64,000 nucleotides of DNA, taken from Minisyncoccota bacterium. GTDB taxonomy: Bacteria > Patescibacteriota > Minisyncoccia > Phycocordibacterales > UBA918. Positions 4,341-63,756 of this stretch are shown piece by piece; positions within the stretch are counted from its first letter, which is position 1, and every line of letters starts with the position of its first letter. The stretch lies in NCBI GenBank assembly GCA_041389045.1, contig JAWKSQ010000001.1, positions 267,063 through 331,062 on the forward strand, given 5' to 3'. The notes under the pieces are model-generated. The model saw only the letters and a list, made by a program, of their open reading frames with translations. It made no database searches and was not told where the DNA came from. The position numbers were made by a program, and so were the translations under genes.

Positions 4341-4366
4341 TTTGCGTAATTTGTCCGCGCTCTAGG
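4341..4366. repeat. second copy of the 26-nt direct repeat (overlaps the functional tRNA 3' end)
   Basis: identical to 4011-4036. Confidence 0.9.
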
Positions 4367-4427
4367 ATTCGAACCTAGGACCCTCCGAGTATCAGTCGAA
4401 TGCTCTAGCCAACTGAGCTAAGCGCGG
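4354..4427 (-). tRNA. tRNA-Ile (anticodon GAU), CCA not encoded
   Basis: Hand fold of the reverse complement: acceptor CCGCGCT/AGCGCGG, D-arm GCTC-AGTTGGCTA-GAGC, anticodon arm TTCGA-CTGATAC-TCGGA, variable GGGTC, T-arm CTAGG-TTCGAAT-CCTAG, discriminator A. Confidence 0.9.
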
Positions 4428-4973: not shown

Positions 4974-5062
4974 AAATAAAGAGTCGCTTTTCCACTGTCG
5001 TCAATACTTTTAAAATACCGTCTCATAGTGGTATTTAGGTCAAAATTACGTATGATAGTGAC

Positions 5063-21888: not shown

Positions 21889-21951
21889 AGAATACTAGGT
21901 ATTATACTGCATATTTAAAGTGGTGCTAAATTACTTGATTCTTATAAAGCT

Positions 21952-29057: not shown

Positions 29058-29060
29058 GTG

Positions 29061-30224
29061 TTATCTTTTAAAGTGACGATAAATCTTATAGAGAGGTTTT
29101 AAGTAAGTTGGTATTTTTAAATATCTAGGTCTATTTAATAGACCTAGATCTGTCAGGTATTTTACTACACTTTTATTGATTTTATCTTGTTGGTGACCGA
29201 TAAGACCCTCCGAGATGCGGAGATACATATAGAGTAAAAGAGGGGTTTGACTACCGTTTTTGGCTAAACAAGCACCAAGCAAAGTGAGCGCCTCTGAGTA
29301 TTTTTCTCGCTGCACTAAGCTGATCATTTCAATAAAACTTTGGGAGAGGTCGGAATAAGTCTCCGACTGGTTGGTCAACAGAGGTTTACCGCTTTGGGCA
29401 TAGTCGACAATCTTAGCACGAAGATTTGTGTTTTGACCGTGATAGTTTAAGTTAAAGATATCAAAAGAGATAATCATTTCGATTACGGCATTATGAAAAG
29501 ATGAGAGGATTGGTTCTAGGGCCAGATAGCTATTTATTGAAATGAGTCCTTGCTCATATTCGCGTTCGTAGTAGGACTTATGAGAGGTTTGGTTTTGGCG
29601 ATGGTAATAAAAAGTATTTGGACAAACAGAGGCTTTTAGACTCTTGGCAAGGAAGCCTAGACCAAATGTTTGGGTATCAAACCCGTGAGCAGTCGGGTAG
29701 CCACCAATGACAGAAAAGGCATTTTTTGTGTACATGAAGTTTACTTGCGTCAAAAAACCAGCCTCGGTGTTAAAGAGATCATTTAGTGAGACAATTTCCT
29801 CTTTGGGAGAATTGGGTACAATCTCTACATTTTTAAAATTAGTACTAAAAAATCTAGTTTCTGCAAAAAGGACGCCGTCTAGTTTTTTATCACACAAAAA
29901 AGTGTACATGCGAATAAGTGTCTGTGGGGGCAACACGTCGTCGCTATCTAGACAAAAGATTGTTGTAGCTAAAGTTTTTGATACAGCAGTGTTTCTAGCG
30001 GCCCCGCCACCTTGATTGGTCTGATGGGTGAGTAGGGTGATATTTGGATAGGTAGCTTTAATATTCTTAAGCAGAAGACCAGTACCGTCAGTTGAAGCAT
30101 CATCGACTAAGACAATTTCAAAATCATCACTGGCAAAGCCTTGTGTGTAGCAGGACTTAACTGCTTCAAGAAGGGTCTTTTCGCAATTGTAACAAGGTAT
30201 GATAATAGACAGTTTAGGCGCCAT
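29061..30224 (-). CDS. GT2 glycosyltransferase with helical C-terminal extension
   Basis: LSIIIPCYNCEKTLLEAVKSCYTQ...FEIVLVDDASTDGT, LDSDD. Confidence 0.75.
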   Translation of the reverse strand: MAPKLSIIIPCYNCEKTLLEAVKSCYTQGFASDDFEIVLVDDASTDGTGLLLKNIKATYPNITLLTHQTNQGGGAARNTAVSKTLATTIFCLDSDDVLPPQTLIRMYTFLCDKKLDGVLFAETRFFSTNFKNVEIVPNSPKEEIVSLNDLFNTEAGFLTQVNFMYTKNAFSVIGGYPTAHGFDTQTFGLGFLAKSLKASVCPNTFYYHRQNQTSHKSYYEREYEQGLISINSYLALEPILSSFHNAVIEMIISFDIFNLNYHGQNTNLRAKIVDYAQSGKPLLTNQSETYSDLSQSFIEMISLVQREKYSEALTLLGACLAKNGSQTPLLLYMYLRISEGLIGHQQDKINKSVVKYLTDLGLLNRPRYLKIPTYLKPLYKIYRHFKR

Positions 30225-31035
30225 AGATTTTTTTGAAAGCCAGGTTCTGTGTCGTGGTTTTGTATTTATTATCTCGTAGTTTAGATTCTGAGTGATAAGT
30301 TAGAATTTCTAATCCTTTCAAGAGTGGGGTGACAAGTAAGAACAATACTGGTTTAAACCATCGGTATAGGAAATTCTTCGAGAATCTCTTGTCTCTGCGG
30401 GAGAGACCATAAATTATCCTTTTTACTTTACTTCTAACTGGACCTTCTTCGTAGGTTAAAAACATCAGTTCATAGCCATTTTTTTTCATTAAGATAACTA
30501 TCTCCTCAGTTGTGTAGTGTTTTATGTGTCCGTAAGTTTTTTCTTTATAATATATAGCTGACTCAGGGGCGGGGCCGCATTTTAGGGGGTTGGGGGTCAT
30601 TATATATACAACACCGCCATAGGTTTGGAGGGCTGCTATCTTTTCTACAAACGCCTTGATGTCTGGTATGTGTTCATATATATCAGCTAGTAATATAAAA
30701 TCGGCCACTTCACGATTATTATAATTTTCAATTAAATCTTGGAAAATTTGTATGTTGGAGTGATTCTGCTTCAGCTTTTCGTGCTCTTCATGGTTGGTTA
30801 TTTCTACCAGAGTAGCTTTTTTAAAATATTGTGAAAATGAAGTTAGGTAATGACCAGAGCCACCACCAATATCAAGGCAATGATCCCATTTTTCAGAGAT
30901 GTTTAAAGCATGAAGCATATACTCTAAAGAAATCTTGACTGTGATATTGGGAATATCTTCAGAGTACTGAGCATCAATTAAGTTCCTCCGGTAGTTTTTA
31001 AAGATATTTATCTTTGGATACATTGGCTTTGACAT
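30214..31035 (-). CDS. class I SAM-dependent methyltransferase
   Basis: CLDIGGGSGHY, ADFILLADIYEHIPD. Confidence 0.6.
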   Translation of the reverse strand: MSKPMYPKINIFKNYRRNLIDAQYSEDIPNITVKISLEYMLHALNISEKWDHCLDIGGGSGHYLTSFSQYFKKATLVEITNHEEHEKLKQNHSNIQIFQDLIENYNNREVADFILLADIYEHIPDIKAFVEKIAALQTYGGVVYIMTPNPLKCGPAPESAIYYKEKTYGHIKHYTTEEIVILMKKNGYELMFLTYEEGPVRSKVKRIIYGLSRRDKRFSKNFLYRWFKPVLFLLVTPLLKGLEILTYHSESKLRDNKYKTTTQNLAFKKIYGA

Positions 31036-31044
31036 ACATTTTTG

Positions 31045-31995
31045 TCATCTAAATAATTTCTTTAAAACTTTTGTAATTCCCACTAACACTAACATTCGTA
31101 CAAAATAGTGCCATATTTTATCCCGCCACCGATTACCGAGAGTGGTATAAAATTGCTTAAGTTTTTTTACTGCTTCAGAATTTTCAGCAATGACACTTTC
31201 CATTGCTATATCCTCACTTTGATCTAATTCAACGGTGAATTGACTCTTGCCAAGGATGCGGTTAAGGGCGGTGAAATGCGTCCCGTTATAGAGGCCGTTA
31301 TTTTTAGTGAGGGCACCGGGGGAATTTACAGTGAGACCGTCATTTCTTACTATAGCAATGTTCCAGCATATATCCCACGGGATAATGGGGTGTTTGAGGT
31401 TACCTAGGCATTTAAAAATACCATCAAGTTCAATATAGTTGATCTTCTCGGGCGTCAAAGCTGTCAGGGCTTCTGCCTCAGATTGAAACCAGGTAAATTT
31501 ATCCCAACGGTCCTTCCAGGTCGCCCAACCCCCGCCGGTATTTTCCGCATAGCGCCAAAGGAACGTCTTTCGCTCTGGCCAATCAATAAAGGTGAAGGTG
31601 CCAATATGCATAACCCGCTTGTGTGAGTCATAGAAATCAAGGGCTTGATTCATGAAGGTTAAGAAATAGGGAGAGGTGACACCGTCGTCTTCAAGGACAA
31701 TCACTCGGCCAAATTTATTAACGGTGTTCGTTACTCCGTCGATGATATTGCGCTCAATATAAAAATTTTCTGGCCTTTCAACTACGGTAAAGCTCTTAAA
31801 TCCAGTGACGGTCTTAAGGTATGCCCGCACAGCGGCAACTGCTTTCTCCGCTCGGCTATTCTTAGGTCCATCAGAAAAAACTATCACGTCTGTTTCTGGC
31901 GCTAAATAATTTTTCTGCAAAGCTTCGATAACCTCCCTAGTATTTCCGGGGCGATTGTAGACAAATACAGCAACAGGTGATAATTCTTTTTCCAT
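31045..31995 (-). CDS. GT-A-fold glycosyltransferase
   Basis: VAVFVYNRPGNTREVIEAL, VIVLEDDGVTSPYF, GGWATWKDRWD; paralogue of 24918..25831. Confidence 0.6.
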   Translation of the reverse strand: MEKELSPVAVFVYNRPGNTREVIEALQKNYLAPETDVIVFSDGPKNSRAEKAVAAVRAYLKTVTGFKSFTVVERPENFYIERNIIDGVTNTVNKFGRVIVLEDDGVTSPYFLTFMNQALDFYDSHKRVMHIGTFTFIDWPERKTFLWRYAENTGGGWATWKDRWDKFTWFQSEAEALTALTPEKINYIELDGIFKCLGNLKHPIIPWDICWNIAIVRNDGLTVNSPGALTKNNGLYNGTHFTALNRILGKSQFTVELDQSEDIAMESVIAENSEAVKKLKQFYTTLGNRWRDKIWHYFVRMLVLVGITKVLKKLFR

Positions 31996-32822
31996 TATGT
32001 TTGATTTGAGGACGTGGTTCTGTGAATCGCTCTTGGGTGATTACAGGGGGTATTAGTAAGTATAAGTTTGGCATGAGGGACTCGATTTGTTTCTGGAGGT
32101 GGTGTCATGTAAGATTTTCCATAAATAGTAGCAAGATGTTCGTGATAGTTATTTGGTGCTGGATACATTTTTCCCTCAAATTCAACATCAACAATTGGAT
32201 ATAAATATTGCAAAGGAACAGAGAACATGTAACCGTTGTCTTCAGGTGTCATGCCATAGCCATATTTTTTAAGAGGGGAAAGTAGTAGCCAAATAAATTT
32301 ACAAATACCATAAATAATAAAATTTATAAATATGTTCTTTCTATTCACTACGGCTTTATATCTACTACGTACAGTAGTGAACATTAGGACTTTTTGAAAT
32401 AGCCTCGGCATTTTGGGATATTCTACAGATGGAAATATATCTATAAATATACCCTGATGATATTTGGTTCCTCGTTCTTCGTGAGTTTCAATAAATGTAG
32501 AATGGCAATCACGTAGTTTTGTAAAATATTGCTTAAATGCCGAATCGGTTTTTGGTGTCTGCAAGAAAATATCCTTTGGTAACTCTGCTTCAGCAATTTT
32601 TAAAAACTCTCGATAATCTTTCATGGGCATTGAAACATCGATATCGTCATCCCAAGGTATGAATTTACCGTTTCGAACGGCGCCAAGTAATGTACCGTAG
32701 TCAAGCCAATAAACAAGATTATTTTTTTTACAAATACGATCTAACTCGTTAAGTATACGAAGTTGAATTTTCCGCAACTCAGCGATGTCCTCGGTTTTAA
32801 TTATAGTAGTTGGCGTTACCAT
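31995..32822 (-). CDS. LicD-family phosphotransferase (phosphocholine/phospho-alcohol transfer to glycans)
   Basis: LDYGTLLGAVRNGKFIPWDDDIDVSMP. Confidence 0.75.
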   Translation of the reverse strand: MVTPTTIIKTEDIAELRKIQLRILNELDRICKKNNLVYWLDYGTLLGAVRNGKFIPWDDDIDVSMPMKDYREFLKIAEAELPKDIFLQTPKTDSAFKQYFTKLRDCHSTFIETHEERGTKYHQGIFIDIFPSVEYPKMPRLFQKVLMFTTVRSRYKAVVNRKNIFINFIIYGICKFIWLLLSPLKKYGYGMTPEDNGYMFSVPLQYLYPIVDVEFEGKMYPAPNNYHEHLATIYGKSYMTPPPETNRVPHAKLILTNTPCNHPRAIHRTTSSNQT

Positions 32823-32824
32823 CG

Positions 32825-33445
32825 TTATTTTTTAGTAGCAATTATACGTAAAAAAGTGTAATCAGTACCGTTATGAGGAGCAAAACCTTTTTTCTCTTCT
32901 TGAGTTACAACATGAAATCCCTGATTTGTTAACTTGTTAATTAATATTTCACGATTAACAAAACGACGATAATGGTCATTATAAATAAAAGCGTTTGATT
33001 GACCTGGAACAGGTTCACCTAATTTAAAAATCTCATTTTTATGACCCCGAGCTTCTATGCATAAGTATCCGTTGTCAGATAAATTTCTGTGTGACCATGC
33101 TATAACTTTGTCTTCCTGTTCTTCAGTAATTGAATGAAGTGTAAACCTTGAATATACGACATTAAATTCTCCTAAGTCATCTAGTTTTGTGAAATCAGTT
33201 GCTAGAAACTTCAAATTTTCATTTACTAAGTTTTCTTTTAAATCTGGAGCCTCACATTGATCAGTTGCTAAAACATTTAAACCGTGGTTTGCAAAATATA
33301 AGCAATCCCGTCCATTACCACAACCAAGTTCAATAATAGACTGTCCTTCTTTTAGGTAGTTATCTAAAACATGTTGTGCAAAAAGCGAAGGCTTACGTTC
33401 AGCTCCAACATTATTGTAATAGTTTTCCCAGTACTTTTTATCCAT
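32825..33445 (-). CDS. class I SAM-dependent methyltransferase
   Basis: IIELGCGNGRDCLYFANHGLNVLATD. Confidence 0.65.
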   Translation of the reverse strand: MDKKYWENYYNNVGAERKPSLFAQHVLDNYLKEGQSIIELGCGNGRDCLYFANHGLNVLATDQCEAPDLKENLVNENLKFLATDFTKLDDLGEFNVVYSRFTLHSITEEQEDKVIAWSHRNLSDNGYLCIEARGHKNEIFKLGEPVPGQSNAFIYNDHYRRFVNREILINKLTNQGFHVVTQEEKKGFAPHNGTDYTFLRIIATKK

Positions 33446-33577
33446 AAATTTGCAGTTGTGTAAAAGTCATATTATAAATTGATTCATTAGTTTCCCATTA
33501 CCCGCGAGGTTATGCAAGTATATAAGTTTCATTATCCTATAACATAATTCTAAGAAGTCAGTTACATAACTAAACTT

Positions 33578-34909
33578 TCACTTTTTATGAAGAGAATGCA
33601 AATCATCTCTGAATTGTCTTAAAAATAATAACCCAAGTGGGATTACAGAGTAAGAGAATAGAGTGGAAATAGCGGCTCCCACGGCCCCATAGCGAGGAAT
33701 CATAAATAGATTTAAAGAGATGTTAATCAACGCACCGGTCAGGGTAAGATATAGGTGAATTCGGCCTTTGTTTTCAGTAATAAGATACTGTTGTACCAAT
33801 ATACCCAGTATTCCAACAGCTCCCGACCAGATATAAATTTGAAGTAATATGATGGATTCAATAAATTTTTCACCAAATAAGATTAAAATAATTGGACGGG
33901 CGAATATGAAAACAAACAACGTGACAGCTAAAGTGATTGCCATTACAAGTATCGTTAGGGCTCTGTACCTCTGCAGGTATGAAAGACGACTGATTTTTTT
34001 AGCACTGACTAAGGCAGGGAAGACAGAGCTAATGATAAGGGCAGGGATAAAGCTCCAAATGTTGGATATTCTAACCGCGACATCATACAAGCCAACCGAG
34101 GTTGAGCCTAGGTATTGTTGTAGCATTACTTGGTCAATTCGCGCATAGATATAACTAAAAAAGCCAGCAAACAAAAAAGGCCACGAGTCGTTCATTAGTT
34201 GTTTAAAGATAGACCACTCAAACTTCCACTCTAAGGGGTTTTGCTTAAACTTGTTTATATAAATGTATAGTGACCAAACAGTAGATATCAGAGCTTCAAT
34301 TACTAATAGTCCGGCAAAGAATAGAACACCTTTATCAAAAACTATCACTAAAATTTTTAAAATTGGAATAAAAAAAGCAATAAAGATTGTGGCGTGTGAG
34401 GTATACCGTGCCTGGACCTTGGCTTGGAATAGTATGGCAATCGTACCGAGTGGGTTGATTAAAAAAGTAAAAGCGGTAATGGCAACTAATTGGGTAAGTA
34501 AGGTTTCATTATCAATTGATAAGGAAAGTACAATGGATAAAACAAAAGCAAAAAAACCAAAAATGAATTTTGCTAAGACGGCGGTACCGATAAGCCCATG
34601 TTCCTTTTCAGGTTTTGCAGTTAAGTCCCGATAGAGTATTTGGTCTATCCCTAGAGAGGCAAAGACCGACAATATTGATACAAAACTTTGGGCATAACTA
34701 ATTTTCCCTAGGTTTTCTGGGCCAAGGTATCTAGCAACCATAGCCATGGTGAGAAAAGAAGTTACAAAAGTGGCCCCTCTAGCTGCAAATAGCCACCCTG
34801 TATTTTTGAAATATTTTTTAAAGCCATCTTTATTCCAATCGCTAACAAGTCGCTCATAAAGCCAGTTAGGTAGTAGCTTAAGCGCAGCGGAGTTTAAGAG
34901 TTGATACAT
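33578..34909 (-). CDS. Wzx-type (MOP superfamily) polysaccharide flippase
   Basis: 443 aa, about 12 TM segments, typical N-terminal KNTGWLFAARGATFVTSFL. Confidence 0.7.
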   Translation of the reverse strand: MYQLLNSAALKLLPNWLYERLVSDWNKDGFKKYFKNTGWLFAARGATFVTSFLTMAMVARYLGPENLGKISYAQSFVSILSVFASLGIDQILYRDLTAKPEKEHGLIGTAVLAKFIFGFFAFVLSIVLSLSIDNETLLTQLVAITAFTFLINPLGTIAILFQAKVQARYTSHATIFIAFFIPILKILVIVFDKGVLFFAGLLVIEALISTVWSLYIYINKFKQNPLEWKFEWSIFKQLMNDSWPFLFAGFFSYIYARIDQVMLQQYLGSTSVGLYDVAVRISNIWSFIPALIISSVFPALVSAKKISRLSYLQRYRALTILVMAITLAVTLFVFIFARPIILILFGEKFIESIILLQIYIWSGAVGILGILVQQYLITENKGRIHLYLTLTGALINISLNLFMIPRYGAVGAAISTLFSYSVIPLGLLFLRQFRDDLHSLHKK

Positions 34910-49313: not shown

Positions 49314-50270
49314 ATGTTTGTCGATAGTCTAACCTTACATATGAAAGCCGGCGACGGGGGTGACGGAGTCACGCGTTGGAGACATGAAAAGTTTCGACCA
49401 ATGGCTGGTCCTGCTGGCGGTAATGGGGGTCGCGGTGGCGACGTTTTTTTGCGTGCTGTCCGGGACGTTAACTTACTGGCTAAGTACACTGGCGACAAAA
49501 ACTTCGAAGCACAGTCAGGTGAAGACGGTCAAGATAAGAGTAAGTTTGGTAAGAACGGTGATGATCTCTACGTAGACGTACCGGTGGGCTCAATTGTCAC
49601 TGACCTGACCCGTGAACGAGTTTACGAGTTACTAGAGGAGGGGTTAGAAATAAAAATTCTTAAGGTGGAAGTGGCGGTGTCGGCAACGAACAGTTCAAGA
49701 CAGCAACCAATCGCTCCCCAGAGGAATCGACAGAAGGACGGGATGGTGAGGAAGGAGACTTTTTAGTCGAGTTGTCACTCGTAGTAGATATCGGTTTAGT
49801 GGGAATGCCGAACGCCGGCAAGTCTACATTACTGAATTCTTTAACCAACGCTCAAGCAAAAGTCGGAGCTTACCCGTTTACCACTGTTGAACCGAACTTA
49901 GGTGACCTCTATGGGTACACTATTGCTGATGTGCCAGGGTTAATCAGTGGAGCGGCTTCCAGGTAAAGGGCTCGGACATACGTTTCTCCGACACATTTCT
50001 CGTACAAAAATGATCCTCCACTTAGTCTCGCTTGAGACAGAGGAGTCGATTAATCAGTATTATACCATTCGAGAGGAGCTGTCCCAGTATGCAAAAGAAT
50101 TAGAGGATAAGGAAGAATGGATTATTTTTACAAAAATGGACCTTACAAATCAAGACTATATTGATAGGGTGGTTAGTGATGTTGACAAACTTGAGAAACG
50201 TGTGTTTGTTATCTCTACTGAAACGGGTGATGGAGTAAAAGAATTGCGGATGCGCTTGTTAAGCACCTAA
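49314..50270 (+). pseudogene. obg: GTPase Obg, at least two frameshifts (about 49662 and 49948)
   Basis: MFVDSLTLHMKAGDGGDGV...GGNGGRGGDV; [14 protein letters not shown] restored by one G; [15 protein letters not shown]; [15 protein letters not shown]. Confidence 0.85.
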
Positions 50271-51892: not shown

Positions 51893-52894
51893 ATGGAAGT
51901 AGTTACTATTGATGGAGTGGAGTATCTTAAAGCTACGCAAGCAGCTAAGCGTTTTAAATATACCAGTGATTACATTGGGCAATTGTGCCGAGGGAAAAAG
52001 ATAGACGCTAAGCTAGTTGGACGTACCTGGTATATCAACCCGCTTTCTTTAGAGACACATAAAAAAGGACTCTACACGAAAAATGTGGAGGTGCCTGCAA
52101 GCGAGATAAGTATAGAAAATAAGGGCGGTAAAGAAATATCTCGGATAGACATAGAACCAGTTATTAGAAAGGAGACGGCAAAAATTGCATCTGGCATTTT
52201 ACCTAAGTCTAATTTTTCTAAAAGAATTGATTGGAAGCCAGTAAAGTATGAGCCTGATACATCCGAGTTGTTGCCAAATTTAAAAGCTATTAAAAATACA
52301 GATGAAATATCAAGAATAAAGGTTGATATTGCTGATTCAGAGAAAATTACCGTACGAAATAGCCCTGGTCCTACAAAAATGGTAGCAGATCCACTACCAA
52401 CAATTTCATTGGCTGGGTCACTTAAAATTCAGTCGATTGATGATGATTTTAAGGGGGTAGATTTTGATAATAGGTTGGAAAATATAGTTAAGTCGGAAGA
52501 GAAAGTTGATAAGGAAATAGACTTAAAAGTTAGATTCAAGAAGAGTGATGAGGTTGAAGAAGTACAAATTCATCGACCCACGACTATTAAAAGCAATCAA
52601 AAGACTTCAACTAAAGAAATTACCGAAAGTGAGGCGACTTATCGAGTTGATATAAGCCACTCAGCTTTTCCGGCCTCATTTACGCCTAAAGTCGTTAATC
52701 CTCGAAATACGATAGTGGAGAAAAATTTTGACAGAGCAGATATAAAAAATAGCCCCACGAGCTTTTTACCGTACTTGTTGGTCGCTGTTTGCGGCCTGGT
52801 CTGTTTACTGACTGTTTCGTTTATTGAGATAGTAGTTTTAGCTGATTCTGAGAGGCAAGATTTTTCTTTCAATATTTCTAAAATTGAGCTTTGA
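51893..52894 (+). CDS. membrane-tethered protein with N-terminal excisionase/MerR-like HTH
   Basis: IDGVEYLKATQAAKRFKYTSDYIGQLCRGKKIDAKLVGRTWYINPLSL; C-terminal TM (LPYLLVAVCGLVCLLTVSFIEIVVL); TGCTATACT 11 nt before ATG. Confidence 0.55.
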   Translation: MEVVTIDGVEYLKATQAAKRFKYTSDYIGQLCRGKKIDAKLVGRTWYINPLSLETHKKGLYTKNVEVPASEISIENKGGKEISRIDIEPVIRKETAKIASGILPKSNFSKRIDWKPVKYEPDTSELLPNLKAIKNTDEISRIKVDIADSEKITVRNSPGPTKMVADPLPTISLAGSLKIQSIDDDFKGVDFDNRLENIVKSEEKVDKEIDLKVRFKKSDEVEEVQIHRPTTIKSNQKTSTKEITESEATYRVDISHSAFPASFTPKVVNPRNTIVEKNFDRADIKNSPTSFLPYLLVAVCGLVCLLTVSFIEIVVLADSERQDFSFNISKIEL

Positions 52895-52979: not shown

Positions 52980-53783
52980 ATGTCGACAAGTATTGAAATA
53001 GACGGAGTAAATTTAATTCCAGTGAAGGAGGCTACTTCACTAGTTTCGTACTCTAAGGACTACATCTCTAGGTTGGCACGTGAAGGAAAAATTGTTGCTT
53101 CCCAGGTCGGTCGTCAATGGTTCGTTGATGCTGTGTCATTGAAGAATTTTGCTGATTCTGCCAGTCTGCAAGAAGAGGCACGAAAGGGAGAACTCAGAGC
53201 CGAGCGCAAGCGAGAGCTGCAAGCTCAAGAAAAGTTTCATAATCTTGAAAATTTTTCGAGTAGCATTTCTCGTAGACACAGAGTGGAGGCTCTTGGAGTT
53301 TCGGTGGCAACGCTTTGTCTTGGTTTAGTGGTGGGTGTCAGTGTCTATACCTCCTCGCTCTTTGCGTTACCTACATCTTCTGCACCTGACTCAGTAGCCT
53401 TCGTCTCCTCTCCACTTAAGTTGGAAAAGTTAGCTGATCCGGCAGTCAATGATTCTGTACCTGTAGTAGTGTCTGAGCCATCTGACATAGCTATCTTTTC
53501 TAGTGTCGAGAAGTATCCGGTATTTGAGACTGTTAGTGAAACTAGGATTTTAGAGGGTGATGTGCCAGGAATTTTACTGTTTGCTCAAGCCGGCGAGTTG
53601 CATGATCCTGCTTCAGTTGAGGCACTTTTTTCTGATGCAGTTAAGGTGAATTTTACTAGTGACAATACTGGCACAGTTTCTTTTGAGAAAGAAAAGGGCA
53701 ACACCACGGAAGTTCCATTTGTGACAGTACCGTCACAAGTTGAGCATGATGGTTTGTCCGAAGTAAGTACTGCGGCGCTATAA
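52980..53783 (+). CDS. paralogous membrane-tethered HTH protein
   Basis: IDGVNLIPVKEATSLVSYSKDYISRLAREGKIVASQVGRQWFVDAVSL; central TM (LGVSVATLCLGLVVGVSVYT). Confidence 0.55.
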   Translation: MSTSIEIDGVNLIPVKEATSLVSYSKDYISRLAREGKIVASQVGRQWFVDAVSLKNFADSASLQEEARKGELRAERKRELQAQEKFHNLENFSSSISRRHRVEALGVSVATLCLGLVVGVSVYTSSLFALPTSSAPDSVAFVSSPLKLEKLADPAVNDSVPVVVSEPSDIAIFSSVEKYPVFETVSETRILEGDVPGILLFAQAGELHDPASVEALFSDAVKVNFTSDNTGTVSFEKEKGNTTEVPFVTVPSQVEHDGLSEVSTAAL

Positions 53784-53789
53784 ATCGAT

Positions 53790-55640
53790 ATGAATTCTTT
53801 ACTAGCACAAAAGAAAATCAGCACTCTTCTCACCGGAGCTTTTGGGTTATTAATTGTTCTCGCTTTAAATACCAACTTGGCTTTGGCTCAGGCTAATCCG
53901 CAAATTAATTACCAAGGCAAGCTCACTAACGGCAGTGGAGTCGCTGTACCAGACGGTACATACAACATGCGTTTCTGGATTTTGACTTCACCAAGTATCG
54001 CCACCAGCTCAGCGCTCTGGACTGAGTCTCTTACTGCTTCCGACACCAAAGTTCAAGTGACGAATGGTCTCTTCTCAGTGATGCTTGGTTCTAGTACACC
54101 ACTAACTTCCGTCGACTGGAATCAAACTCTCTACCTCGGCGTGGAGATCGGTGGTACTTCTACACCAGCTTGGGATGGGGAAATGAGTCCACGAAAGATT
54201 CTCGGGACTGTTCCGGCCGCTTTTGTGGCTAATTACGCAAACGTTGCTGGTAGTGCTAGCACCTCAGACAGTGCTACAACCGCTGTGAGTGCCAGTAGCT
54301 CAGATACGCTTGCTGGTATTGCTTCATCCTCTTTCCTTCGTTCTGACGAGGCCGATACTATGGAAGCTACCTCAACTTCACCGCTACTGTCACTGATCCA
54401 AAACGGTACCGGGAAGTTACTGAGTCTCTTCCGGGGACTCACAGAGGTCTTCACTGTTGGAAACAACGGCCATGTTGGAGTGGGTACTAGTACCCCGGGT
54501 TCATTGTTCTCAGTGCAAGGGACAGCTGGCTCAAGCACACCACTCTTCACGGTTGCTTCGAGTACTGGCACAGCATTAATGGGCATACTCAGTAATGGTA
54601 ATGTCGGTATTGGTACTAACTCAGCTGGAGAAAAACTGGAAGTAGTTGGTAACATCATTTCCAAGGGAACTGAGTGGACACTTAGGACTAGTACGACAAC
54701 AAACTCTTGGCACTCTGTCACCTACGGTAACGGTCTTTTTGTAGCGGTTGCTTTTACTGGCGGTGTCATGACTTCACCAGATGGAATAAATTGGACGCCA
54801 AGAACTGCGGCAGCTGCAAATCAATGGACTTCCATCACCTACGGCAATGGTATCTTCGTGGCGGTTTCAAATAATGGTACAGACCGCGTCATGACTTCAC
54901 CAGATGGAATAAATTGGACTAGTAGGAAAAGTATCACCTCTAATCGATTATGGTCGGCGGTCACTTACGGTAACGGTCTTTTTGTAGCGGTTGAGACTGG
55001 CGCTGCCGGTTCTGATCAAGTTATGACATCTCCAGATGGTATTACATGGACTAACAGATCAGCTACAGGTGCAGCATGGTCATCTATTGCTTATGGTAAT
55101 GGACTCTTTGTAGCTGTATCTTCCGATGGTAGTGGCACAATGACATCTGTCGACGGTATAGTTTGGAATTATCCTTCCTCTCCTACTTCAAATGCCTGGT
55201 CTGCTATTACCTACGGTAACGGTCTCTTTGTGACTGTTGCCTCAACCGGTTCTGGTGATCGAGTCATGATTTCACCAGATGGTGTAACTTGGGCAACAAG
55301 CACTAGCGTTGCAGATAACTCTTGGCACTCTGTCACCTACGGCAACGGCCTGTTTGTGGCAGTTTCCAATGATGGTTCTGGTAATCGTGTCATGACTTCA
55401 CCGGATGGAATTACTTGGAAGACTAGATCAACGAGTGGTATTGATAAAAGTTATCTTGGAGTAACGTATGGCAGTGGCATCTTTGTAGCTGTAGCTTCTA
55501 CTGGTTCTGGTCAAGACGTCATGACTTCCGGCAAGGTAGACTACTCAGTTCTTGCTCACAACAACATCTACCAAGGTGGCATGTCAGTCTTTGGTAATTT
55601 ACGGTCGGTTCATCTACCAATAGTAATCCTTTCTCGATAG
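53790..55640 (+). CDS. secreted fibre/adhesin: N-terminal fibre domain + 7-bladed beta-propeller (supermodule 1); the 3' end is set by a 1-nt indel
   Basis: Signal peptide; INYQGKLTNGSGVAVPDGTYNMRF; 7 repeats of W.S(V/I)TYGNGLFVAV...VMTSPDGI(N/T)WT; ORF stops 40 nt after a base missing relative to the copy at 60871-60880. Confidence 0.7.
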   Translation: MNSLLAQKKISTLLTGAFGLLIVLALNTNLALAQANPQINYQGKLTNGSGVAVPDGTYNMRFWILTSPSIATSSALWTESLTASDTKVQVTNGLFSVMLGSSTPLTSVDWNQTLYLGVEIGGTSTPAWDGEMSPRKILGTVPAAFVANYANVAGSASTSDSATTAVSASSSDTLAGIASSSFLRSDEADTMEATSTSPLLSLIQNGTGKLLSLFRGLTEVFTVGNNGHVGVGTSTPGSLFSVQGTAGSSTPLFTVASSTGTALMGILSNGNVGIGTNSAGEKLEVVGNIISKGTEWTLRTSTTTNSWHSVTYGNGLFVAVAFTGGVMTSPDGINWTPRTAAAANQWTSITYGNGIFVAVSNNGTDRVMTSPDGINWTSRKSITSNRLWSAVTYGNGLFVAVETGAAGSDQVMTSPDGITWTNRSATGAAWSSIAYGNGLFVAVSSDGSGTMTSVDGIVWNYPSSPTSNAWSAITYGNGLFVTVASTGSGDRVMISPDGVTWATSTSVADNSWHSVTYGNGLFVAVSNDGSGNRVMTSPDGITWKTRSTSGIDKSYLGVTYGSGIFVAVASTGSGQDVMTSGKVDYSVLAHNNIYQGGMSVFGNLRSVHLPIVILSR

Positions 55641-55648
55641 CATCAACG
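55530..55648 (+). repeat. junction repeat J, copy 1
   Basis: 119 nt versus 120 nt at 60801-60920: one substitution and one 1-nt indel; encodes GKVDYSVLAHNNIYQGGMSVFGNLRVGSSTNSNPFSIAS. Confidence 0.85.
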
Positions 55649-56612
55649 CTGGCATAACTACTTCTCCATTACATTGCTTCCATCTTCGGCGCATCATCTC
55701 CAAACCAAACCGCTACCACCAATCCGACTTTCCATTGCTTCTAGTACTGGTTCTTCACTTCCACAGCCTAACTGTAAATCAAGCTTGGTAAGCTCTTAGG
55801 AATTCAGGCAATCTACCAGGTACACAACTTTGTAATTCACTTTTTCTAACAGTTCAATGTTTTAGGAACTGGTTCGGCTACATCGTTACTGACAACTCAT
55901 TCAAGTACAGGTTTTCAATATTTAATGGCTTACCAAATGGATCTGCAGCTGGGATCTTAATACCACCGGTTCAAATAACTCTTTCATAGGAGTTCAGGCC
56001 GGCATCAACACTACTGGCTCTGACAACATATCGATTGGTAAAGACGCTTTATATTTAAATTTAAGTAACGCCAGCATTGCCACTCGCTTTCCACCTTATA
56101 TAAACTATCGGAGTAACAATGGTTCAATTGGGCTACACTAATACTTGGAATAGATTTGCTAACGCAGTTGCCGGATATGGTGCTAGTCCATCGTCGGTGG
56201 AACGCCCTCAATTGGTAACTCATAATGTGGTATAGGCACCACTACCCCAGTTCAACACTCACTATCCGTGGTACGGCTGGAAACAATCTACTTTATTGCT
56301 TCGAGTACGGGAATCACTATTTTGCAAAATGGTAACGTCGGAGGTTTTTAACCAGTGCTAACACTTTTGACTATGTTGCAAAATGGTAACGTCGGAGTGG
56401 GTAAATTCTTTATTCTCACTAGCCCTTCTACTGGACGGTTGGTTTTTATCTGGGTGAGTTGACGGAAACTCTGGAAATTTATGGGGTGGTCGAGAACTTA
56501 GTGACGGATCAGAGATGTCAATTAATTGGTGGACTCGTAATCTTTATGACAAATTAACCAGTGTTGAGTTGATAACGGTAATGTTGGTATCGGTCCACCA
56601 TCTGTTCTGTAG
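55641..56612 (+). pseudogene. heavily degraded beta-helix/linker part of supermodule 1
   Basis: Recognisably homologous to 57960-59000 and 60920-61760 (e.g. ATCCGTGGTACGGCTGGAAACAAT) but with many small gaps and stops in all frames. Confidence 0.6.
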
Positions 56613-58966
56613 TAGGTGACGCTCGTATTACCGGCGCACTTCGCGATAGTGCTAATAGCGCTGGTACATCCGGCTACGTCCTTCAGACCACCGGTAGTGG
56701 TACTCAGTGGGTCGCCACCTCATCCCTTGGTATAACCGGTTCCGCCGGAGTTCTGTGCGGAGCAGTTGGTTTGCGACTCAGATGGCTATCAGCTACTACG
56801 CTTGGTACTTCCACTCTACTAGACAACGGTCTAGTCGCTGGTATCAACGCTACTTCATCTAGCTATTCTTTCAACGTCCAAGGTGCTTCAGGTATCAATC
56901 CATTCCGTGTCGCATCCTCAACCGGGACATCCTTGTTATCTGTTTTAAATAATGGTGAGGTGGAAGTTCTTGGGCAAGTAATTTCTAAAGGTCTAAGTTG
57001 GACCAATATCACCAGTTATCCTGTAGGTAATAGCAGTTGGAGCTCCATTACCTATGGTAATGGACGCTTTGTAGCGGTTGGTGATAATGGTACCGATCTA
57101 ATTATGCATTCAAGTGATGGAATAAATTGGGCAACCACCACTGCTTTTGGTGCAGATGATGATTGGACCTCAGTCACCTACGGCAACGGCCTCTTTGTTG
57201 CAGTAGCTAGTGATGGGACCGATATAGTTATGACTTCCCCTGATGGAATTAATTGGACCGCCCGTTCTGCTGTGGGTAATAATGATGATTGGTGGGATGT
57301 TACCTACGGCAACGGTCTCTTCGTGGCGGTAGGTAGTTCTGGAGATTATGTCATGACTTCCCCTGATGGTATTAATTGGACCGCTCGCTCTGCTGCTGGT
57401 AATAATGATTATTGGACATCAATCACCTATGGCGATGGTCTCTTCGTGGCGGTAGGTAGGTCTGGAGATCGAGTCATGACTTCCCCTGATGGTATTAATT
57501 GGACCGCTCGCTCTGCTGCTGGTAACGATGATTGGTGGAGTTCTGTCACCTACGGCAATGGTCTCTTCGTGGCGGTAGGTAGTTTTGGTGATCGAGTCAT
57601 GACTTCCCCTGATGGTATTAATTGGACCGCTCGCTCTGCGACAAGTGATAGTTGGTCAGGGGTCACTTACGGGGATGGTTTATTTGTTGCTGTGAGTAAC
57701 TATGGCAGTGACTCAATCATGACTTCCCTGATGGTATCAATTGGACTGTCCGAAATACTAATGGAGATGGTTTAAGAGATGTTATATTTGCTAATGGAAC
57801 TTTTGTGTCTGTAGGTGACTATGTAGGCTTAATCTCCGGCAAAGCCGACTACAGTGTCCTCGCCCACAACAACATCTACCAAGGTGGTATGTCAGTCTTT
57901 GGTAATCTTACCGTATCGGTTCATCTACCAACGTAATCCTTTCTCGATAGCATCAACTACCGGTTCAAATCTATTCTCTATTACCAACAGTGGTCGAGCG
58001 ATCTTTGGTACTACCACCGCCACAACGCCAACATCTTCCTTAACGGTGGCTCAGCGACCACAAAACGTTGCAGATTCAAACTCCATTGCGATTGGTAATG
58101 AAGCCCTTACATATACCTCAACCACCTCTACATCACTTCGAAACATTGCACTCGGTTACCAAGCACTTTATGGTTCTTCTACAGCACTAATGACTGGAGC
58201 TGATAACTTCGCAGTCGGATATCAAGCAGGATATGCAAACACCACAGGGTCGTTTAACACTTTCATTGGCTCTGGAGCAGGTAGAGCTAATACTGCCGGT
58301 GCAGGTAACTCATTTATTGGTCTTCAGGCTGGATATGCAAACACTACAGGTTCTAATAATTTTTTCGTTGGTAGTTTATCAGGTGATGTTAATACTACTG
58401 GATCAAGTAATATGTTCGTAGGTTATGATGCTGGTGGAAGTAATACTACTGGATCAAGTAATTTGTTTGTAGGATATCGATCTGGTTTAAGCAACACAAC
58501 AGGATCAGACAACTTTGCAGTTGGTTATGAATCTGCACGTAATAATTCTACTGGTTTAAATAATATAGCTATAGGTAATAGTGCCTTGTTTTATAATACT
58601 ACCGGCTCAGATAATATAGCTCTTGGAGCTACGTCTTTAGTGTTTAACACTACCGGTAACGCCAACATCGCCTTTGGTACTTCCACCCTTTATAACACTA
58701 CCGGCTCTAATAACATCGGTCTTGGTCGCTTCGCTGGATATACTAATACCTCAGGTGGAAGCAACCTCTACCTCGGCGCCTTCGCTGACGCAGCTGCTGG
58801 TACATATAGTTCTTCCACCGCCATCGGTGCTGGCTCCATCGTCGGTCGCTCGAACGCCCTCATCTTGGGTGGTACCGGGAACTCATACGTCAACGTTGGT
58901 ATCGGCACTACCACCCCAGCTTCGACTCTCACTATCCGTGGTACCCGCTGGAAACAATCTTCTTAA
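56613..58966 (+). pseudogene. fibre supermodule 2 (stalk, 7-bladed propeller, 17-residue NTTG beta-helix repeats) with about 4 frameshifts
   Basis: ITGALRDSANSAGTSGYVLQTTGSGTQWVATSSLG; ORFs 56771..57775 and 57854..58966; break at 57722 is CCCC to CCC in ACTTCCCCTGATGG. Confidence 0.65.
57104..57730 (+). repeat. 123-bp tandem repeats (propeller blades), central copies near-identical
   Basis: GT(C/T)ATGACTTCCCCTGATGG recurs at 57227, 57350, 57473, 57596 and (with 1-nt loss) about 57717. Confidence 0.85.
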
Positions 58967-60851
58967 TATCGCTTCTAGTACCGGTGTATCACTATTTTCA
59001 ATTCTTCAAAATGTTGGGGATTGGGACCAGTGCGCCGGTAAATTAACTGTCTGGTGATACAAATTTAATCGGACAGATTTGTTTTATGTAGCCGCGTTTT
59101 CACAGACAACTTCTTGGTAGATAACTTAAATAATAAATTTTTGTCAGATGATTGGTAATGGGTAATACTGGTAATTTAAATGTTAGTAATCAATATGTTA
59201 ATAATACTAAATTGGTTGTATTTGGGGATATTGGCTTCTAGAGGTTATGGAACACAACAGATAACTTTTTGGTAGATAATACCAATGATACTAATGGTCA
59301 GAACCTAGCTATCCATGCCGGGGTAATGCCGGTTATCGATTTTGACTCGGAGAAAAATGGTGGTGATTTATATTTAAGTGCTGGTTTAAGGGAACGGAAT
59401 TGAGTTCCAATGGTAATGTGATTTTGGTTATAATGGTAATTCATTTGTTGGTAATATCGGCATTGCTACCACCACTCCATCTAGCAAACTCACCGTCGCA
59501 GGCGATACATATATAGGTGGCTCACTTAGTGTCTCTGGTGCCTTAAAAGATTCCTCTAACGCCTCCGGTACTGCTGGCTATGTTCTTCAGACCACCGGTT
59601 CAGGCACTCAGTGGGTCGCCACTTCATCACTCGGCTTTGGTTCCAGCCTTTCTGGTGGAGCGGTTGGTTTTGCGACCAGATGGCTCTCAGCTACTACGCT
59701 TGGTACTTCCACTCTACTAGACAACGGTCTAGTCTCTGGTATTAATGCTACTTCATCTAGTTACTCTTTAACGTTCAAGGTAGATCCGGGGTTAATCCAT
59801 TTAATGTGGCTTCGAGTACTGGAGCTTCGTTATTAGCTGTTTTAATAACGGCAACATATCGAACTGAGACAGCGGGCGAGAGACTAGAAGTCGTTGGTAA
59901 CATTATTTCTAAAGGAACTGAGTGGACCTTGAGGACGAGTACGACGACGAATCAGTGAAAGATGTCACCTATGGTAATAGGTTGTTTGTACTAGAGGGAC
60001 CTATTCTGCAACCAATCAATTTTATGACTTCACGATGGTATTACATGGACATCGCGTACAAGTACCAGTTAATAATGTATGGCAGTCATAACTTACGGAA
60101 ATGGCCTCTTTGTGGCAGTGTCTAGTGAATCAAATGGTTCGATCGATAACCGTGTCGTAACTTCACCTGACGGAATAAATTGGACGGCGTTACGCTCAGC
60201 TCCAGATCTAATATGGAATACTGTAACTTACGGCAACGGTTTGTTTGTGGCAGTGGCTGGTAGCTCAGGTGATTATGTTATGACCTCACCAGACGGTATT
60301 ACTTGGACCGGTCGAAGTGCAGCTGGTAATAATGACTATTGGAGAGAAGTAACTTACGGTAACGGACTATTTGTAGCAGTTGTATCCAATGATGGTATGA
60401 TAATTACGTTATGACCTCACCTGACGGTATTACTTGGACACCTAGGTCCGTCACACTCCAATCCTTGGACATCAGTGACTTATGGCAACGGCCTGTTTGT
60501 TGCTGTATCTACTTCTGTTCTAGTAATTGTGAATAACCTCACCAAACGGAATAAACTTGGACATCGAGAACGAGTCCAACCTCGATATGGACATCACCTT
60601 ACGGCAACGGTCTGTTTGTGGCAGTAGGTAATGATGGTTCAGGGTAACAGTTGTAATGACCTCACCAGACGGTGTTGGTTGGACAATTCGTTTGATGCTT
60701 GTGGTAATGATACTTTTATGCTTACCTACGGCAACGGTACGTTTTGTTGCAGTTGAATTTTTCAGACGGTGAAAGGATGTTTTTCCTCCGGTTTTAGGCC
60801 GGCAAGGTAGACTACTCAGTTCTTGCTCACAACAACATCTACCAAGGTGGT
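58967..60851 (+). pseudogene. degraded linker, stalk and propeller of supermodule 3
   Basis: 59460-59790 is homologous to 56590-56890 (47 nt identical at 59689-59735 versus 56790-56836); propeller blades are readable only in short ORFs (59922.., 60079..60414); many stops. Confidence 0.6.
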
Positions 60852-60920
60852 ATGTCAGTCTTTGGTAATTTACGAGTCGGTTCATCTACCAATAGTAATC
60901 CTTTCTCGATAGCATCAACG
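60801..60920 (+). repeat. junction repeat J, copy 3
   Basis: see 55530-55648; a more diverged copy lies at 57839-57960. Confidence 0.85.
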
Positions 60921-63756
60921 ACTGGCTCTAACTTATTCTCCATTACCAATAATGGTCGGGCTATCTTCGGCGCATCATCTACTGCATCTAACATTTTCTT
61001 AAACGGTGGTTCTGCTACGACAAATGTCGCAGACTCAAATTCCATTGCGATTGGTAATGGTGCACTGACTTATACTTCAGTCTCCGCTACTGACTTAAAC
61101 AACATTGCTCTCGGTCACCAAGCTCTTTATGGTTCTTCGACTGCACTCATGACTGGTACGAATAACTTTGCGGCCGGATATCAAGCAGGTGGTTCAAATA
61201 CCACTGGTAGCGGTAACTCGTTTATTGGCTATTGGGCAGGTTATCTAAATACTACTGGTTCATTCAACTCTTTTGATGGTTTTGGCGCCGGATTAGCTAA
61301 TACCACCGGGTCATCAAATATCTTTACAGGATATAATACTGGTTTGAATAATATTTCTGGTTCAGACAATACTGCACTTGGCGCAACTGCTTTATATACA
61401 AATGTTACAGGTAACAATAACATTGCTTTAGGTAACAGTACTTTATTTAATTCAACTGGAAATAATAATATTGCCTTAGGTGCCTATGCTGGATACGGTA
61501 ACACTTCAGGCAATAACAATTTATTCCTTGGAGCCTTTGCTAATGCTTCAGCTGGCACTTACTCTACATCTACTGCTATCGGTGCTGGCTCTATCGTCGG
61601 TCGCTCGAACGCTCTTATTTTGGGTGGAACAGGGAATAATTATGTGAACGTTGGTATTGGTACCACCACCCCAGCTTCGACTCTCACTATCCGTGGCACT
61701 GCCGGCAACAACCTTTTAAATATTGCTTCGAGTACTGGCGCCTCACTACTCACTCTCTTCCAGGATGGTAATCTTTCTCTTGGTACCACCAGCTCAAACG
61801 GTCTCATCAACATGGAACGTTTATCCTTCACCGGTAATGGCACTGTGGCTGGTATTAACCAATACCTCACTTTCGCTAATAGTACCGCTAGTGCTGTCCA
61901 GTACGCTAACCAGACCTACTTAAGTAACTCTAGTACAGCGACCACCACTCTAGTCGGTAACATTATCCGCCTAGCAGACAGCACCACCTTCGGTAACACT
62001 GTACGAGGCTTTGAAGTCCAAACCGAAAGAGGAAACAATACTCTAGGTGAAAACACCGCCATCTCGGGCTTTGCTCGTACCTTTGGTGTACGAGGTGTGA
62101 CTGAAGGCGATGCTGGCGGTACCTTCGAGCCAGCTGGAGTCTATGGTGAGTCAAGAGGTTCAACTCAAGGTAACGCTATCCGTGGTTACTCATCAACCAT
62201 TACCACTTCTTCTCTACTTAAACTCTTCCAAGACACCTCCACCTTTACTGGTACTGGACTTCTCATGAACTTCGGTAACGCTGGTGGCTCTTTCTCTTCT
62301 ACTACCGCTTCTCGCTTCATTGACCTTAAGAACGCTGGTACTTCTATCTACACCGTGGGTGCCTACGGTATGCTCACTATTGGTAACGGTACTACTAATA
62401 ACGCCGGTCTGCAGATTGGCTACGGTGGTATCTGTGTCGATAATGATGGATCTTGTACCGCCTCGACCACCGGTCGTATTACCTCAGTGTCTTCAGCGAC
62501 TGGTAACTCTGACTTAGCGGAAATGTACTTCTCAAATGAAGACCTGGTCCCTGGTGAAATTGTCTACCTGAAGAGTGGTCTTTCTGTCGGTCGGGCTAAT
62601 GCTTCTAGCTCAGATAAGGTTCTTGGCGTCGTTTCTACCTTACCAGGTCTTCTCATGGGACAAGACGACGTTTCACTAAATAGTGGGGAAGAAGGACATC
62701 CAATTGCTCTTAAGGGACGTGTGCCAGTTAGGCTCTCTAATGAAAATGGTGACATTAAAGCTGGGGATGAACTTATGCTGTCTTCTATTCCTGGTGTGGC
62801 TATGAAGGCTTCTTCTACTGGCATCGTAGTTGGTCGCGCCCTAGAAGACTTCAATCCTGGACGCGCCTACAGTGAGACCTATATCAATCAATTCGGTGAA
62901 AGTATCATCGTCCCAGAATACACGCCAATTGACCGGGTGAATGACGCTCGCCTTGATGACGGTTGTTATTATGGTGGTGGTAATGCTTCGGGGAGAAGAA
63001 CCCTGTGTTCCACTCATTTCGACTACCACAGAAGCTAGATACGAAGAAGCCGATGCCCTAGCTTTGCAAACGGCTAAGGATAAAGCCTTGCGCACCCTCG
63101 CTAAGACTAAGAGTGAGACGATAGCTTTAAATAGTGAAGAAACCGTCAAGGTTGGCCAAATCGTGATGTTTGTTGATCTTAAGTACCGTTATCTCGATGA
63201 GAAGGGAATGAATATGTTAGCGGCCCTGTTAGCTACTGCCAGTACTACTGACACGACTAATAATAGTGTAGTAGAGACAGTATGGGAGAGACTAGTCAAT
63301 CTAGCTAATAACTTTGTGGATGGGGTACTGTCTATCTTCAAGCTTAAGGCGGAGAAGGTGGAGACAAGCGAACTCTGTGTGGACGGGGTCTGTATCAATG
63401 CTAGCGACCTACGCCAGCTACTAAATAATACTGGTTCCACAAACCAGTCGAATACAGGTAACCAAGGTGGAGGAAGTACGCTAGAAACTCCAGTGGAAGA
63501 GGAAAATGATGTTCCACCAGTTGTATCTGACACCGGTACCACCACCGCGACCGGTACAGAACCAGTGGTTGACGAGGCAGAGTCTGAGGAGGATGGAGAT
63601 CTTGAGTCAGAACAGGTAGAGAATACTGAAACAGAAGACGTAGAAGTAACAAATGATGAGGTAGTAGTAGAGGAGACGACAGAGGAAGAGTCAGCTAATA
63701 ATGAAGTAAATCAAACAGAGACAGGTACAGCTACCGATACAACAATTACTAGCTAA
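60852..63756 (+). pseudogene. fibre supermodule 3 beta-helix plus unique about 690-aa C-terminal region with acidic tail; one frameshift near 62990
   Basis: ORFs 60852..63038 and 62941..63756 join as ...GGGNASGEEPCVPLISTTTEARYEE...; contains NSDLAEMY...VLGVVSTLPGLLMG...ALKGRVPVRLSNENGDIKAGDELMLSSIPGVAMKA. Confidence 0.65.

Follow-up and report, generated by a model that had tools for sequence, protein, structure and literature searches.

A probable giant phage-tail-fibre-like surface protein gene with three tandem propeller modules in a Minisyncoccota genome

Within a 64,000-nucleotide stretch of the genome of a Minisyncoccota bacterium (assembly GCA_041389045.1, contig JAWKSQ010000001.1, positions 267,063 to 331,062; this whole stretch is called the window, and positions below are counted from its first letter), the plus strand between 53790 and 63756 carries a repetitive locus that is annotated by NCBI as seven separate hypothetical proteins. 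The two largest open reading frames (ORFs) of the locus are identical to NCBI MEZ4195127 (R3B53_01885, 616 aa) and MEZ4195133 (R3B53_01915, 728 aa), and a collection of 5.8 billion proteins holds no protein more than 75% identical to either, the window's own excepted. Sequence self-comparison shows that a block composed of a propeller, a junction (J), 17-residue NTTG repeats and a GYVLQ linker is present in three copies, just as an initial annotation of the sequence had proposed, and that a single N-terminal signal/fibre domain precedes the three modules and a single conserved C-terminal domain follows them. We argue below that the locus is probably one gene of ~3,320 codons, whose orthologs encode giant secreted surface proteins like phage tail fibres at a fixed genomic position in this clade of Paceibacteria, and that the breaks in its reading frame are mostly consensus errors.

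The gene starts at 53790, and its first part (53790-54671) encodes what looks, from the sequence, like a Sec-type signal peptide (aa 1-34), followed by a beta-sandwich 'INYQGKLT' domain (aa ~38-120), a Ser/Thr/Ala-rich stalk and the first GxGTxxP repeats. The AlphaFold2 (AF2) model of this region contains a helix at residues 4-31 and strands at residues 39-120 with a predicted local distance difference test (pLDDT) score of 65-80, the stalk being modelled with low confidence. Next comes an intact 7-bladed propeller (54672-55529) with seven YGxGxF blades, which is recognized by Pfam (EPTP/DUF6242; EPTP at 2e-12), by AF2 (pLDDT >90 for residues 295-585, with seven 4-strand blades closing a ring) and by Foldseek, where the best matches are Ycf48 7-bladed propellers (E=1e-14) and the likeness to peptide- or glycan-binding 7-bladed propellers is generic only. 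Junction J1 (55530-55603) ends at a 1-nt deletion relative to J3 that leads to the stop codon at 55638-55640, and it borders on the first NTTG-repeat segment (55604-56581), a broken zone (Z1) in which the homology path needs ~17 frame changes and meets no in-frame stop.

Linker 1, a short stalk and propeller 2, also of seven blades, come next (together 56582-57830), with a frame change at ~57730 inside the last blade, and are followed by junction J2 (57835-57934; zone Z2, 2-3 frame changes) and the second NTTG-repeat segment (57935-59419), which is intact from 57935 to 58947 and then passes into zone Z3 (58947-59420, ~8 frame changes). Linker 2 (59420-59796), which carries the GYVLQ motif at 59576 and is up to 72% identical to the linker motifs of many relatives, leads into propeller 3 (59797-60797), a broken zone (Z4) with 14 frame changes and seven recognizable blades; junction J3 and the third NTTG-repeat segment (60798-61649), built of 17-residue repeats, are intact. 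The distal end of the gene comprises a conserved domain made of the last GIGTTTP repeats and an NTVRGFEVQ...GLLMNFGN region (61650-62510; many invariant residues, low confidence in AF2), a putative autocleavage site (62508-62513), a domain resembling the Peptidase_G2-type intramolecular chaperone of phage phi29 gp12 (62511-62993), a single frameshift at a G run (TCGGGGAGAA, 62994-62996) and a C-terminal tail (62995-63756) in which a conserved Cys-containing segment and a helical segment precede an acidic low-complexity end and the stop codon.

At the DNA level, the modules are 67-80% identical to one another, far above chance, with module-to-module alignment offsets of 2308, 2904-2963 and 5248-5272 nt, and the propeller blades appear as repeat arrays with a unit of 123-126 nt. 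Each propeller has seven blades of 41-42 aa apiece, as judged from the AF2 model for copy 1 and, for the other two copies, from blade counts. In copy 3 the NTTG repeats show a clear period of 17 residues, and AF2 models them as a regular solenoid with a strand every 17 residues (pLDDT ~80-88). Compared with this copy, segment 1 is identical at 157 of 316 positions in a frameshift-aware alignment that places 17 switches within 55605-56470, and segment 2 shows 60% identity over 337 aa.

The short motifs from which the three copies had been recognized initially are largely, if not everywhere, as described. The linker motif GYVLQTTGSGTQWVATSSLG occurs exactly at 56672 and 59576, and the signal peptide with its N-terminal domain and the C-terminal region with its acidic tail are each present once, as had been claimed. 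Junction motif KVDYSVLAHNNIYQGGMSVFGNL is present three times, with GKVDY/GKADY starting at 55530, at ~57838-57841 (frame mod3=1) and at 60801; the position of 57839 given initially for the middle copy is out of register. LTIRGTAGNNLLNIASSTG (the LTIRG motif) had been listed for all three copies and is complete in one frame in copy 3 only (61683), being interrupted by frameshifts in copy 1 (56258) and copy 2 (58928). The near-perfect match reported at 56790/59689 corresponds to 48 nt of exact identity at 56789/59687, and that reported between J1 and J3 includes 52 nt (55528/60799) and 45 nt (55604/60876) without any mismatch. Over ~121 nt, J1 and J3 differ by one substitution and one 1-nt gap, the latter being a 1-nt deletion in copy 1 at 55603/55604. 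It is because of this deletion, in a tract otherwise like copy 3, that the 616-aa 5' ORF ends. The near-identical tract (121 nt, 55528-55650 versus 60799-60920) has a sharp 5' boundary and lies in modules that are otherwise ~67% identical; it looks like the product of recent intragenic gene conversion, a consensus artefact being the less likely source.

To place the locus among its relatives, we ran a profile of the conserved C-terminal region against GTDB, with each species represented by one genome, and obtained 52 loci, all of them in metagenome-assembled genomes of Patescibacteria (titled mostly Paceibacteria/Paceibacterota, Kaiserbacteria, Nomurabacteria, Parcubacteria or 'uncultured Saccharibacteria'). 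On all contigs that reach far enough upstream, the match forms the end of one uninterrupted ORF, for example of 3,714, 3,404, 3,103, 3,057, 2,928, 2,835 or 2,775 aa, the shortest having 1,624 aa; at eight further loci the contig ends inside the giant gene and the ORF touches the contig end. Fifteen of the giant ORFs begin with a signal peptide and an 'INYQGKLT' domain that are 44-63% identical to the translation of window 53790-54620, and all of them have the same distal domain and tail at their other end. The distal/C-terminal domain of the window is 56-73% identical over 400-450 aa to that of 21 loci, with tails at 31-62%. Every homolog reads on across the position of the frameshift at 62995. 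On the basis that the window holds one such N-terminal and one such C-terminal domain, these are the two ends of one orthologous gene. Moreover, tblastn searches with the neighbouring genes revealed that the order secA-obg-gatB-HTH-HTH-giant gene (HTH, helix-turn-helix) is common to the window and its relatives, and that no more than a few tens of bases lie between the second HTH gene and the start of the giant ORF, in the relatives as in the window.

Each ortholog contains the GYVLQ/GIGTTTP linker motif 2-16 times; tandem modules are therefore a trait of the family, and the triplication in the window is a lineage-specific expansion. Propellers are present in three of the orthologs only, one of which (L015) has a single propeller-J-NTTG module directly before the C-terminal domain, like module 3 of the window. 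Of the two possibilities raised by the initial annotation, one internally triplicated surface fibre of ~3,300 aa is thus supported by relatives with a single ORF (1,624-3,714 aa), the same ends, the same position and the recurring linker. A published description of this Paceibacteria fibre family was not found in the searchable literature, which is absence of evidence only.

The same comparison bears on whether each module could be a gene of its own, giving three paralogs in tandem whose products would be separate fibres of ~1,000 aa. The sizes of the listed database matches (339-1,303 aa) and of the best matches to the C-terminal region (~500-1,300 aa) would agree with this, yet many of the matches of 600-1,300 aa either come from contigs of only ~2-6 kb, a sign of truncation, or start within a propeller when aligned to the locus. 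The ORFs of complete loci have 1,624-3,714 aa, and the 10 kb contain only one signal peptide/N-terminal domain and only one C-terminal domain. We regard three genes as exceedingly improbable. It is also very unlikely, if less so, that the triplication was created by the assembly, with divergent strain variants of one module strung in tandem. Although the assembly is error-prone, no three-propeller relative was found among the scanned loci, L015 has one propeller, and the short-read assemblies of relatives break inside the gene, identity between the copies is only 67-80%, their lengths are unequal (2308 versus 2963 nt between J motifs), their junctions keep the regular grammar linker-propeller-J-repeats-linker, and orthologs from independent assemblies hold many tandem modules bounded by the same linker.

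The other possibility raised initially was antigenic variation, in which the 616-aa 5' ORF is expressed and the downstream promoterless modules serve as silent donor cassettes. In common with pilE/pilS of Neisseria, vlsE/vls of Borrelia and MgPa/MgPar of Mycoplasma genitalium, the locus has tandem partial copies of a surface gene with short near-identical tracts (J1/J3 and the 48 nt at 56789/59687) that could guide recombination, and a start codon and signal peptide are present in the first copy only. Unlike those systems, it has no complete expression-site gene, its N- and C-terminal domains flank the copies, and its frameshifts are of the same kind as those in unrelated genes of the window. 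The 5' ORF, which is truncated through a 1-nt deletion in a tract otherwise like copy 3, lacks the distal and chaperone domains that every ortholog has in the ORF bearing the N-terminus, and the sole C-terminal domain comes after the last of the supposed cassettes, which is exactly where the single-ORF orthologs have it. In addition, dense frameshifts would be harmful if copied, and promoter and terminator matches in the locus are not more numerous than in shuffles. Together with the density of indels over conserved coding sequence and the frameshifts in obg and other genes (see below), these findings speak against an expressed 5' gene with promoterless cassettes, which we consider highly improbable.

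The C-terminal part of the protein appears to be related to phage fibres. When a profile of the whole C-terminal region was compared with the PDB, it matched a repeat of Bdellovibrio Bd2133 only; the match to phi29 gp12 emerged only after trimming to the best-modelled subdomain, for which a 145-aa profile (window 62511-62930) gave 6qz9 at E=0.0011, 3suc at E=0.0038 and 3gqh at E=0.058. Once phi29 gp12 has assembled into trimers, it is cut between Ser691 and Asp692. The alignment spans gp12 residues 674-742, across this cleavage point, and places SDLAEMYF on the SDFAEYF of gp12, with the match to 3gqh, the solved C-terminal fragment of gp12, beginning at its residue 3 ('AE'). The putative autocleavage site, taken from this alignment, is Ser571/Asp572 of the 746-aa frame within the motif NS/DLAEMYF (cut between S and D), of which D, L, A, E, Y and F do not vary among 20 members of the family. 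The chaperone-like domain itself is supported by the profile, has a weak Foldseek match to 3gqh and is modelled with pLDDT 80-91, in a 746-aa AF2 model of which ~40% has low confidence. Ten of 43 family members match PF11962 (Peptidase_G2) at E<=0.05, with P0126 exactly at the cutoff (25.0 bits versus 25). From the gp12 profile alignment, the fold rank and the PF11962 matches we infer a gp12-like maturation, in which cleavage would leave the mature fibre with the distal domain as its C-terminus. Neither Pfam nor PHROG families match this highly conserved domain (the 280 residues that precede the cut), which has no detectable relatives outside the clade, and Pfam gave nothing significant on the N-terminal domain, NTTG repeats, C-terminal domain or tail of the window sequence. 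The 145-aa profile also weakly matched GhpA of the predatory bacterium Aureispira (PDB 9flp; E=0.06), a grappling-hook protein of 5,898 aa and thus a further giant fibre of contact-dependent predation.

Two of the repeat types point in the same direction. The GN(L/V)GIGTxxPxxxLxV repeats match Bd2133 (PDB 8ond) at E=5.7e-5 with three repeats aligned, and NTTG segment 3 matches PHROG tail-spike/virion structural families at E=1e-10 to 1e-14. The resemblance to phage tail-fibre or trimeric adhesin architecture that had been noted initially is therefore borne out for tail fibres, by PHROG, gp12 and Bd2133, and is not supported for trimeric autotransporters, for which no anchor domain was found. 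In a scan of IMG/VR, the only relative on a viral contig was at 5001-5345 of IMGVR_UViG_3300025782_000015, where the chaperone part alone (residues 282-402) is matched at 36% identity. With one weak viral relative only, the family is not that of a typical prophage gene.

The single uninterrupted ORF of the orthologous group is not found in the window sequence itself, in which the longest open frames of the locus measure 618, 397, 377, 746 and 271 codons. A stop-avoiding Viterbi path under a locus-trained codon model requires 30-37 frame switches across the locus, and a homology-guided count gives ~43 frame changes in total for 53790-63756, in four patches: 14 in propeller 3 (59845-60761), 17 in NTTG segment 1, ~3 in J2 and ~8 in 58947-59420, plus 1 at 62995. 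For zone Z3 the changes were counted from the Viterbi path alone, because blastx gave no homologs for 58990-59420. An alternative genetic code was considered and rejected, since the interruptions are frame changes, without one recurrent stop codon.

The breaks are extremely uneven in their distribution. Stretches of 1.8, 1.1, 1.0 and 2.2 kb are free of them, there are ~15 per kb in between, and under a uniform rate the probability that every break misses the intact 7.2 kb is ~3e-24. Despite 14 frame changes per kb, propeller 3 keeps the YGNGLFVAV/MTSPDGITW blade motifs, and after correction of its frame it is 67% identical in amino acids to propeller 1, to which the intact propeller 2 is only 54% identical. 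Real decay at ~15 indels per kb would leave many more substitutions, worn-down motifs and several nonsense codons per kb, which disfavours decay, and the extreme patchiness fits a local failure of consensus or polishing better than it fits neutral decay.

Frame changes also occur in ordinary genes of the window. The gene for the essential GTPase Obg (obg, 49314-50270), a single frame in ten related genomes, has two of them, at ~49676 and ~49966, in short G/C runs with the contexts AAGG(G)TGG and TCC(C)AGG(G)T, and this is the clearest sign of indel errors in the assembly. Likewise, frameshifts split a YkuD + Peptidase_S11 gene (11829-13315) at ~12329, an LTD-like gene (15479-16779) at ~15634 and an FkbM methyltransferase gene (25828-26450, minus strand) at ~26217, in each case inside a domain. 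Among the ~40 larger ORFs outside the locus, at least four are thus broken, one of them essential. So many broken genes would make no biological sense in a genome that is streamlined, and they show that indel defects of the assembly extend to ordinary genes. We think it likely that the breaks of the fibre locus are an assembly artefact too, mostly consensus errors of the long-read type.

Several findings weigh against the reading of the locus as one gene with artefactual breaks. Indel density is ~4.3 per kb in the locus versus ~0.1 in the rest of the window, ~40 times as high, so that a plain genome-wide error rate is insufficient and a locus-specific cause, such as strain heterogeneity, raw-long-read gap filling or failed polishing, must be assumed. 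The breaks are only weakly tied to homopolymers, being slightly nearer to them than random positions are, which is not decisive between error and mutation, and in the J1 tract some of the differences are 2 nt or 7 nt long. One in-frame stop is left at 60795 on the homology path of propeller 3, in a stretch that probably still holds uncorrected shifts. A relative with three propellers was, as mentioned, not among the scanned loci. As to the protein, the Foldseek match to 3gqh is weak (E=0.034, prob 1.0, TM(target) 0.48) and ranks second behind an HFTV1 virion chain, the window's own sequence has no PF11962 match even at E<=1, and the trimerisation, cleavage and surface display of the fibre are matters that we infer.

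Some of these points would sit well with a giant fibre gene that was truly and recently inactivated, its frameshifts being present in the cells: the ~40-fold density, the many indels away from homopolymers and the stop at 60795 within the homology-supported path, to which the seven separate ORFs of the NCBI annotation may be added. Such a pseudogene is nevertheless unlikely in our view, as the damage consists almost purely of indels, propeller 3 has kept its motifs and is nearer to propeller 1 than the intact propeller 2 is, stretches of 2.2 kb and 1.8 kb are untouched in a way that uniform decay would not leave them, the essential obg is broken in the same assembly, and the gene is intact in all relatives with a complete locus. 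Slightly less probable still is a further source of the patches, by which they would mark fibre segments that differ between co-existing cells, with mosaic haplotypes garbling the consensus there. Many such haplotypes would arise as the three supermodules recombine and convert one another, a process of which the 121-nt J1-J3 tract may be a trace. Were this true, the locus would encode a recombination-driven hypervariable host-contact fibre in a Patescibacterium.

For the single giant gene that we favour, a path from synthesis to function can be proposed. Sec would export the chains, and the C-terminal chaperone domain would nucleate trimerisation and the folding of the repeat shaft, after which it would cut itself off at the conserved NS/DLAE site (Ser571/Asp572). 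The product would be a long fibre with three propeller rings binding ligands on a host or partner cell. The middle of the protein would evolve via module duplication and local gene conversion of the kind suggested by the J1-J3 tract.

Directly upstream of the fibre gene, on the same strand, lie two paralogous genes (51893-52894 and 52980-53783), each with an N-terminal HTH_17-like domain and a hydrophobic segment that is possibly a C-terminal transmembrane segment. The Pfam HTH_17 match (E=4e-5) is below the curated cutoff, the HTH is of the excisionase type, and the transmembrane segment is read from the sequence only. The pair keeps its place and order upstream of the giant ORF in many relatives, and its products may be regulators or membrane partners of the fibre. 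Elsewhere in the window, a complete 16S rRNA gene (790-2248) has no adjacent 23S rRNA gene, and a tRNA-Ile(GAT) gene lies 2 kb away on the opposite strand (4354-4427), the rRNA operon therefore being unlinked. A long run of co-oriented genes on the minus strand (21094-34909), of which two ORFs were scanned and which includes a polysaccharide deacetylase and the FkbM methyltransferase, is apparently a cluster for cell-envelope glycans.

As to how Patescibacteria recognize and hold partner cells, work on cultivated Saccharibacteria points to type IV pili and a few adhesins (PMC10633639, PMC12206443). In the uncultured Paceibacteria, a protein with conserved ends and a modular middle of fast turnover is a plausible host-contact organelle, and fibres of this kind are likely to be systematically under-reported, appearing as seven hypothetical proteins here and often being broken inside the gene in the short-read assemblies of relatives. 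The gene family merits attention for these reasons; there is nothing mechanistically unexpected about it, and the most striking sequence feature of the window copy is probably an artefact.

Of the known systems with which the protein can be compared, YadA-type autotransporters share short Asn/Thr/Gly-rich repeats with it, and some homologs are named 'trimeric autotransporter adhesin' by JGI. By contrast, no piece of the locus has a Pfam match to the YadA anchor, Hep_Hag or HIM, and a Patescibacterium presumably lacks an outer membrane in which a beta-barrel could be anchored. Phage tail fibres and tailspikes with S74 chaperones resemble it through the PHROG tail-spike/virion-structural families that match its NTTG repeats, and through its more distant matches, which carry PF13884 and PF26696 and are named tail fibre proteins. 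Neither PF13884 (S74) nor one of the described NS74 tip domains was found at the C-terminus, however, and no piece of the locus matched PF13884. The protein is no S74 fibre, its membership of the trimeric autotransporters is not supported, and by the Pfam threshold it is not a demonstrable member of Peptidase_G2.

With phi29 gp12 the protein shares the S-D-x-A-E-x-F motif at the cleavage point of gp12, and the chaperone domain comes after a repeat or beta-helix shaft in both proteins. On the other hand, gp12 has 854 aa, versus the product of a chromosomal gene of a cellular organism with ~3,300 aa here; its shaft is one right-handed beta-helix in place of NTTG and GIGTTTP repeats with three beta-propellers; ~250 more residues (Cys-rich segment, helices and acidic tail) follow the domain in the window protein; and sequence similarity is marginal.

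The MAT (mosaic adhesive trimer) fibres of Bdellovibrio bacteriovorus (for example Bd2133, Bd3182 and Bd1334) are trimeric, phage-like and adhesive, and their surface display and part in prey handling were shown experimentally (PMC10769870). Like the putative fibre described here, they are long, cell-encoded and phage-tail-fibre-like, have modular exchangeable ends and belong to a bacterium that lives by contact with other bacteria, and one of their subfamilies also ends in an autoproteolytic chaperone (S74). They differ from the window protein in having ~1,000 aa and S74 or novel beta-sandwich tips, the latter protein being three times longer and having a G2/gp12-type chaperone and inserted propellers. 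It is therefore best filed with the cell-encoded phage-like fibres, among which it is set apart by its length, its gp12-type chaperone, its inserted propellers and its conserved chromosomal position in Paceibacteria.

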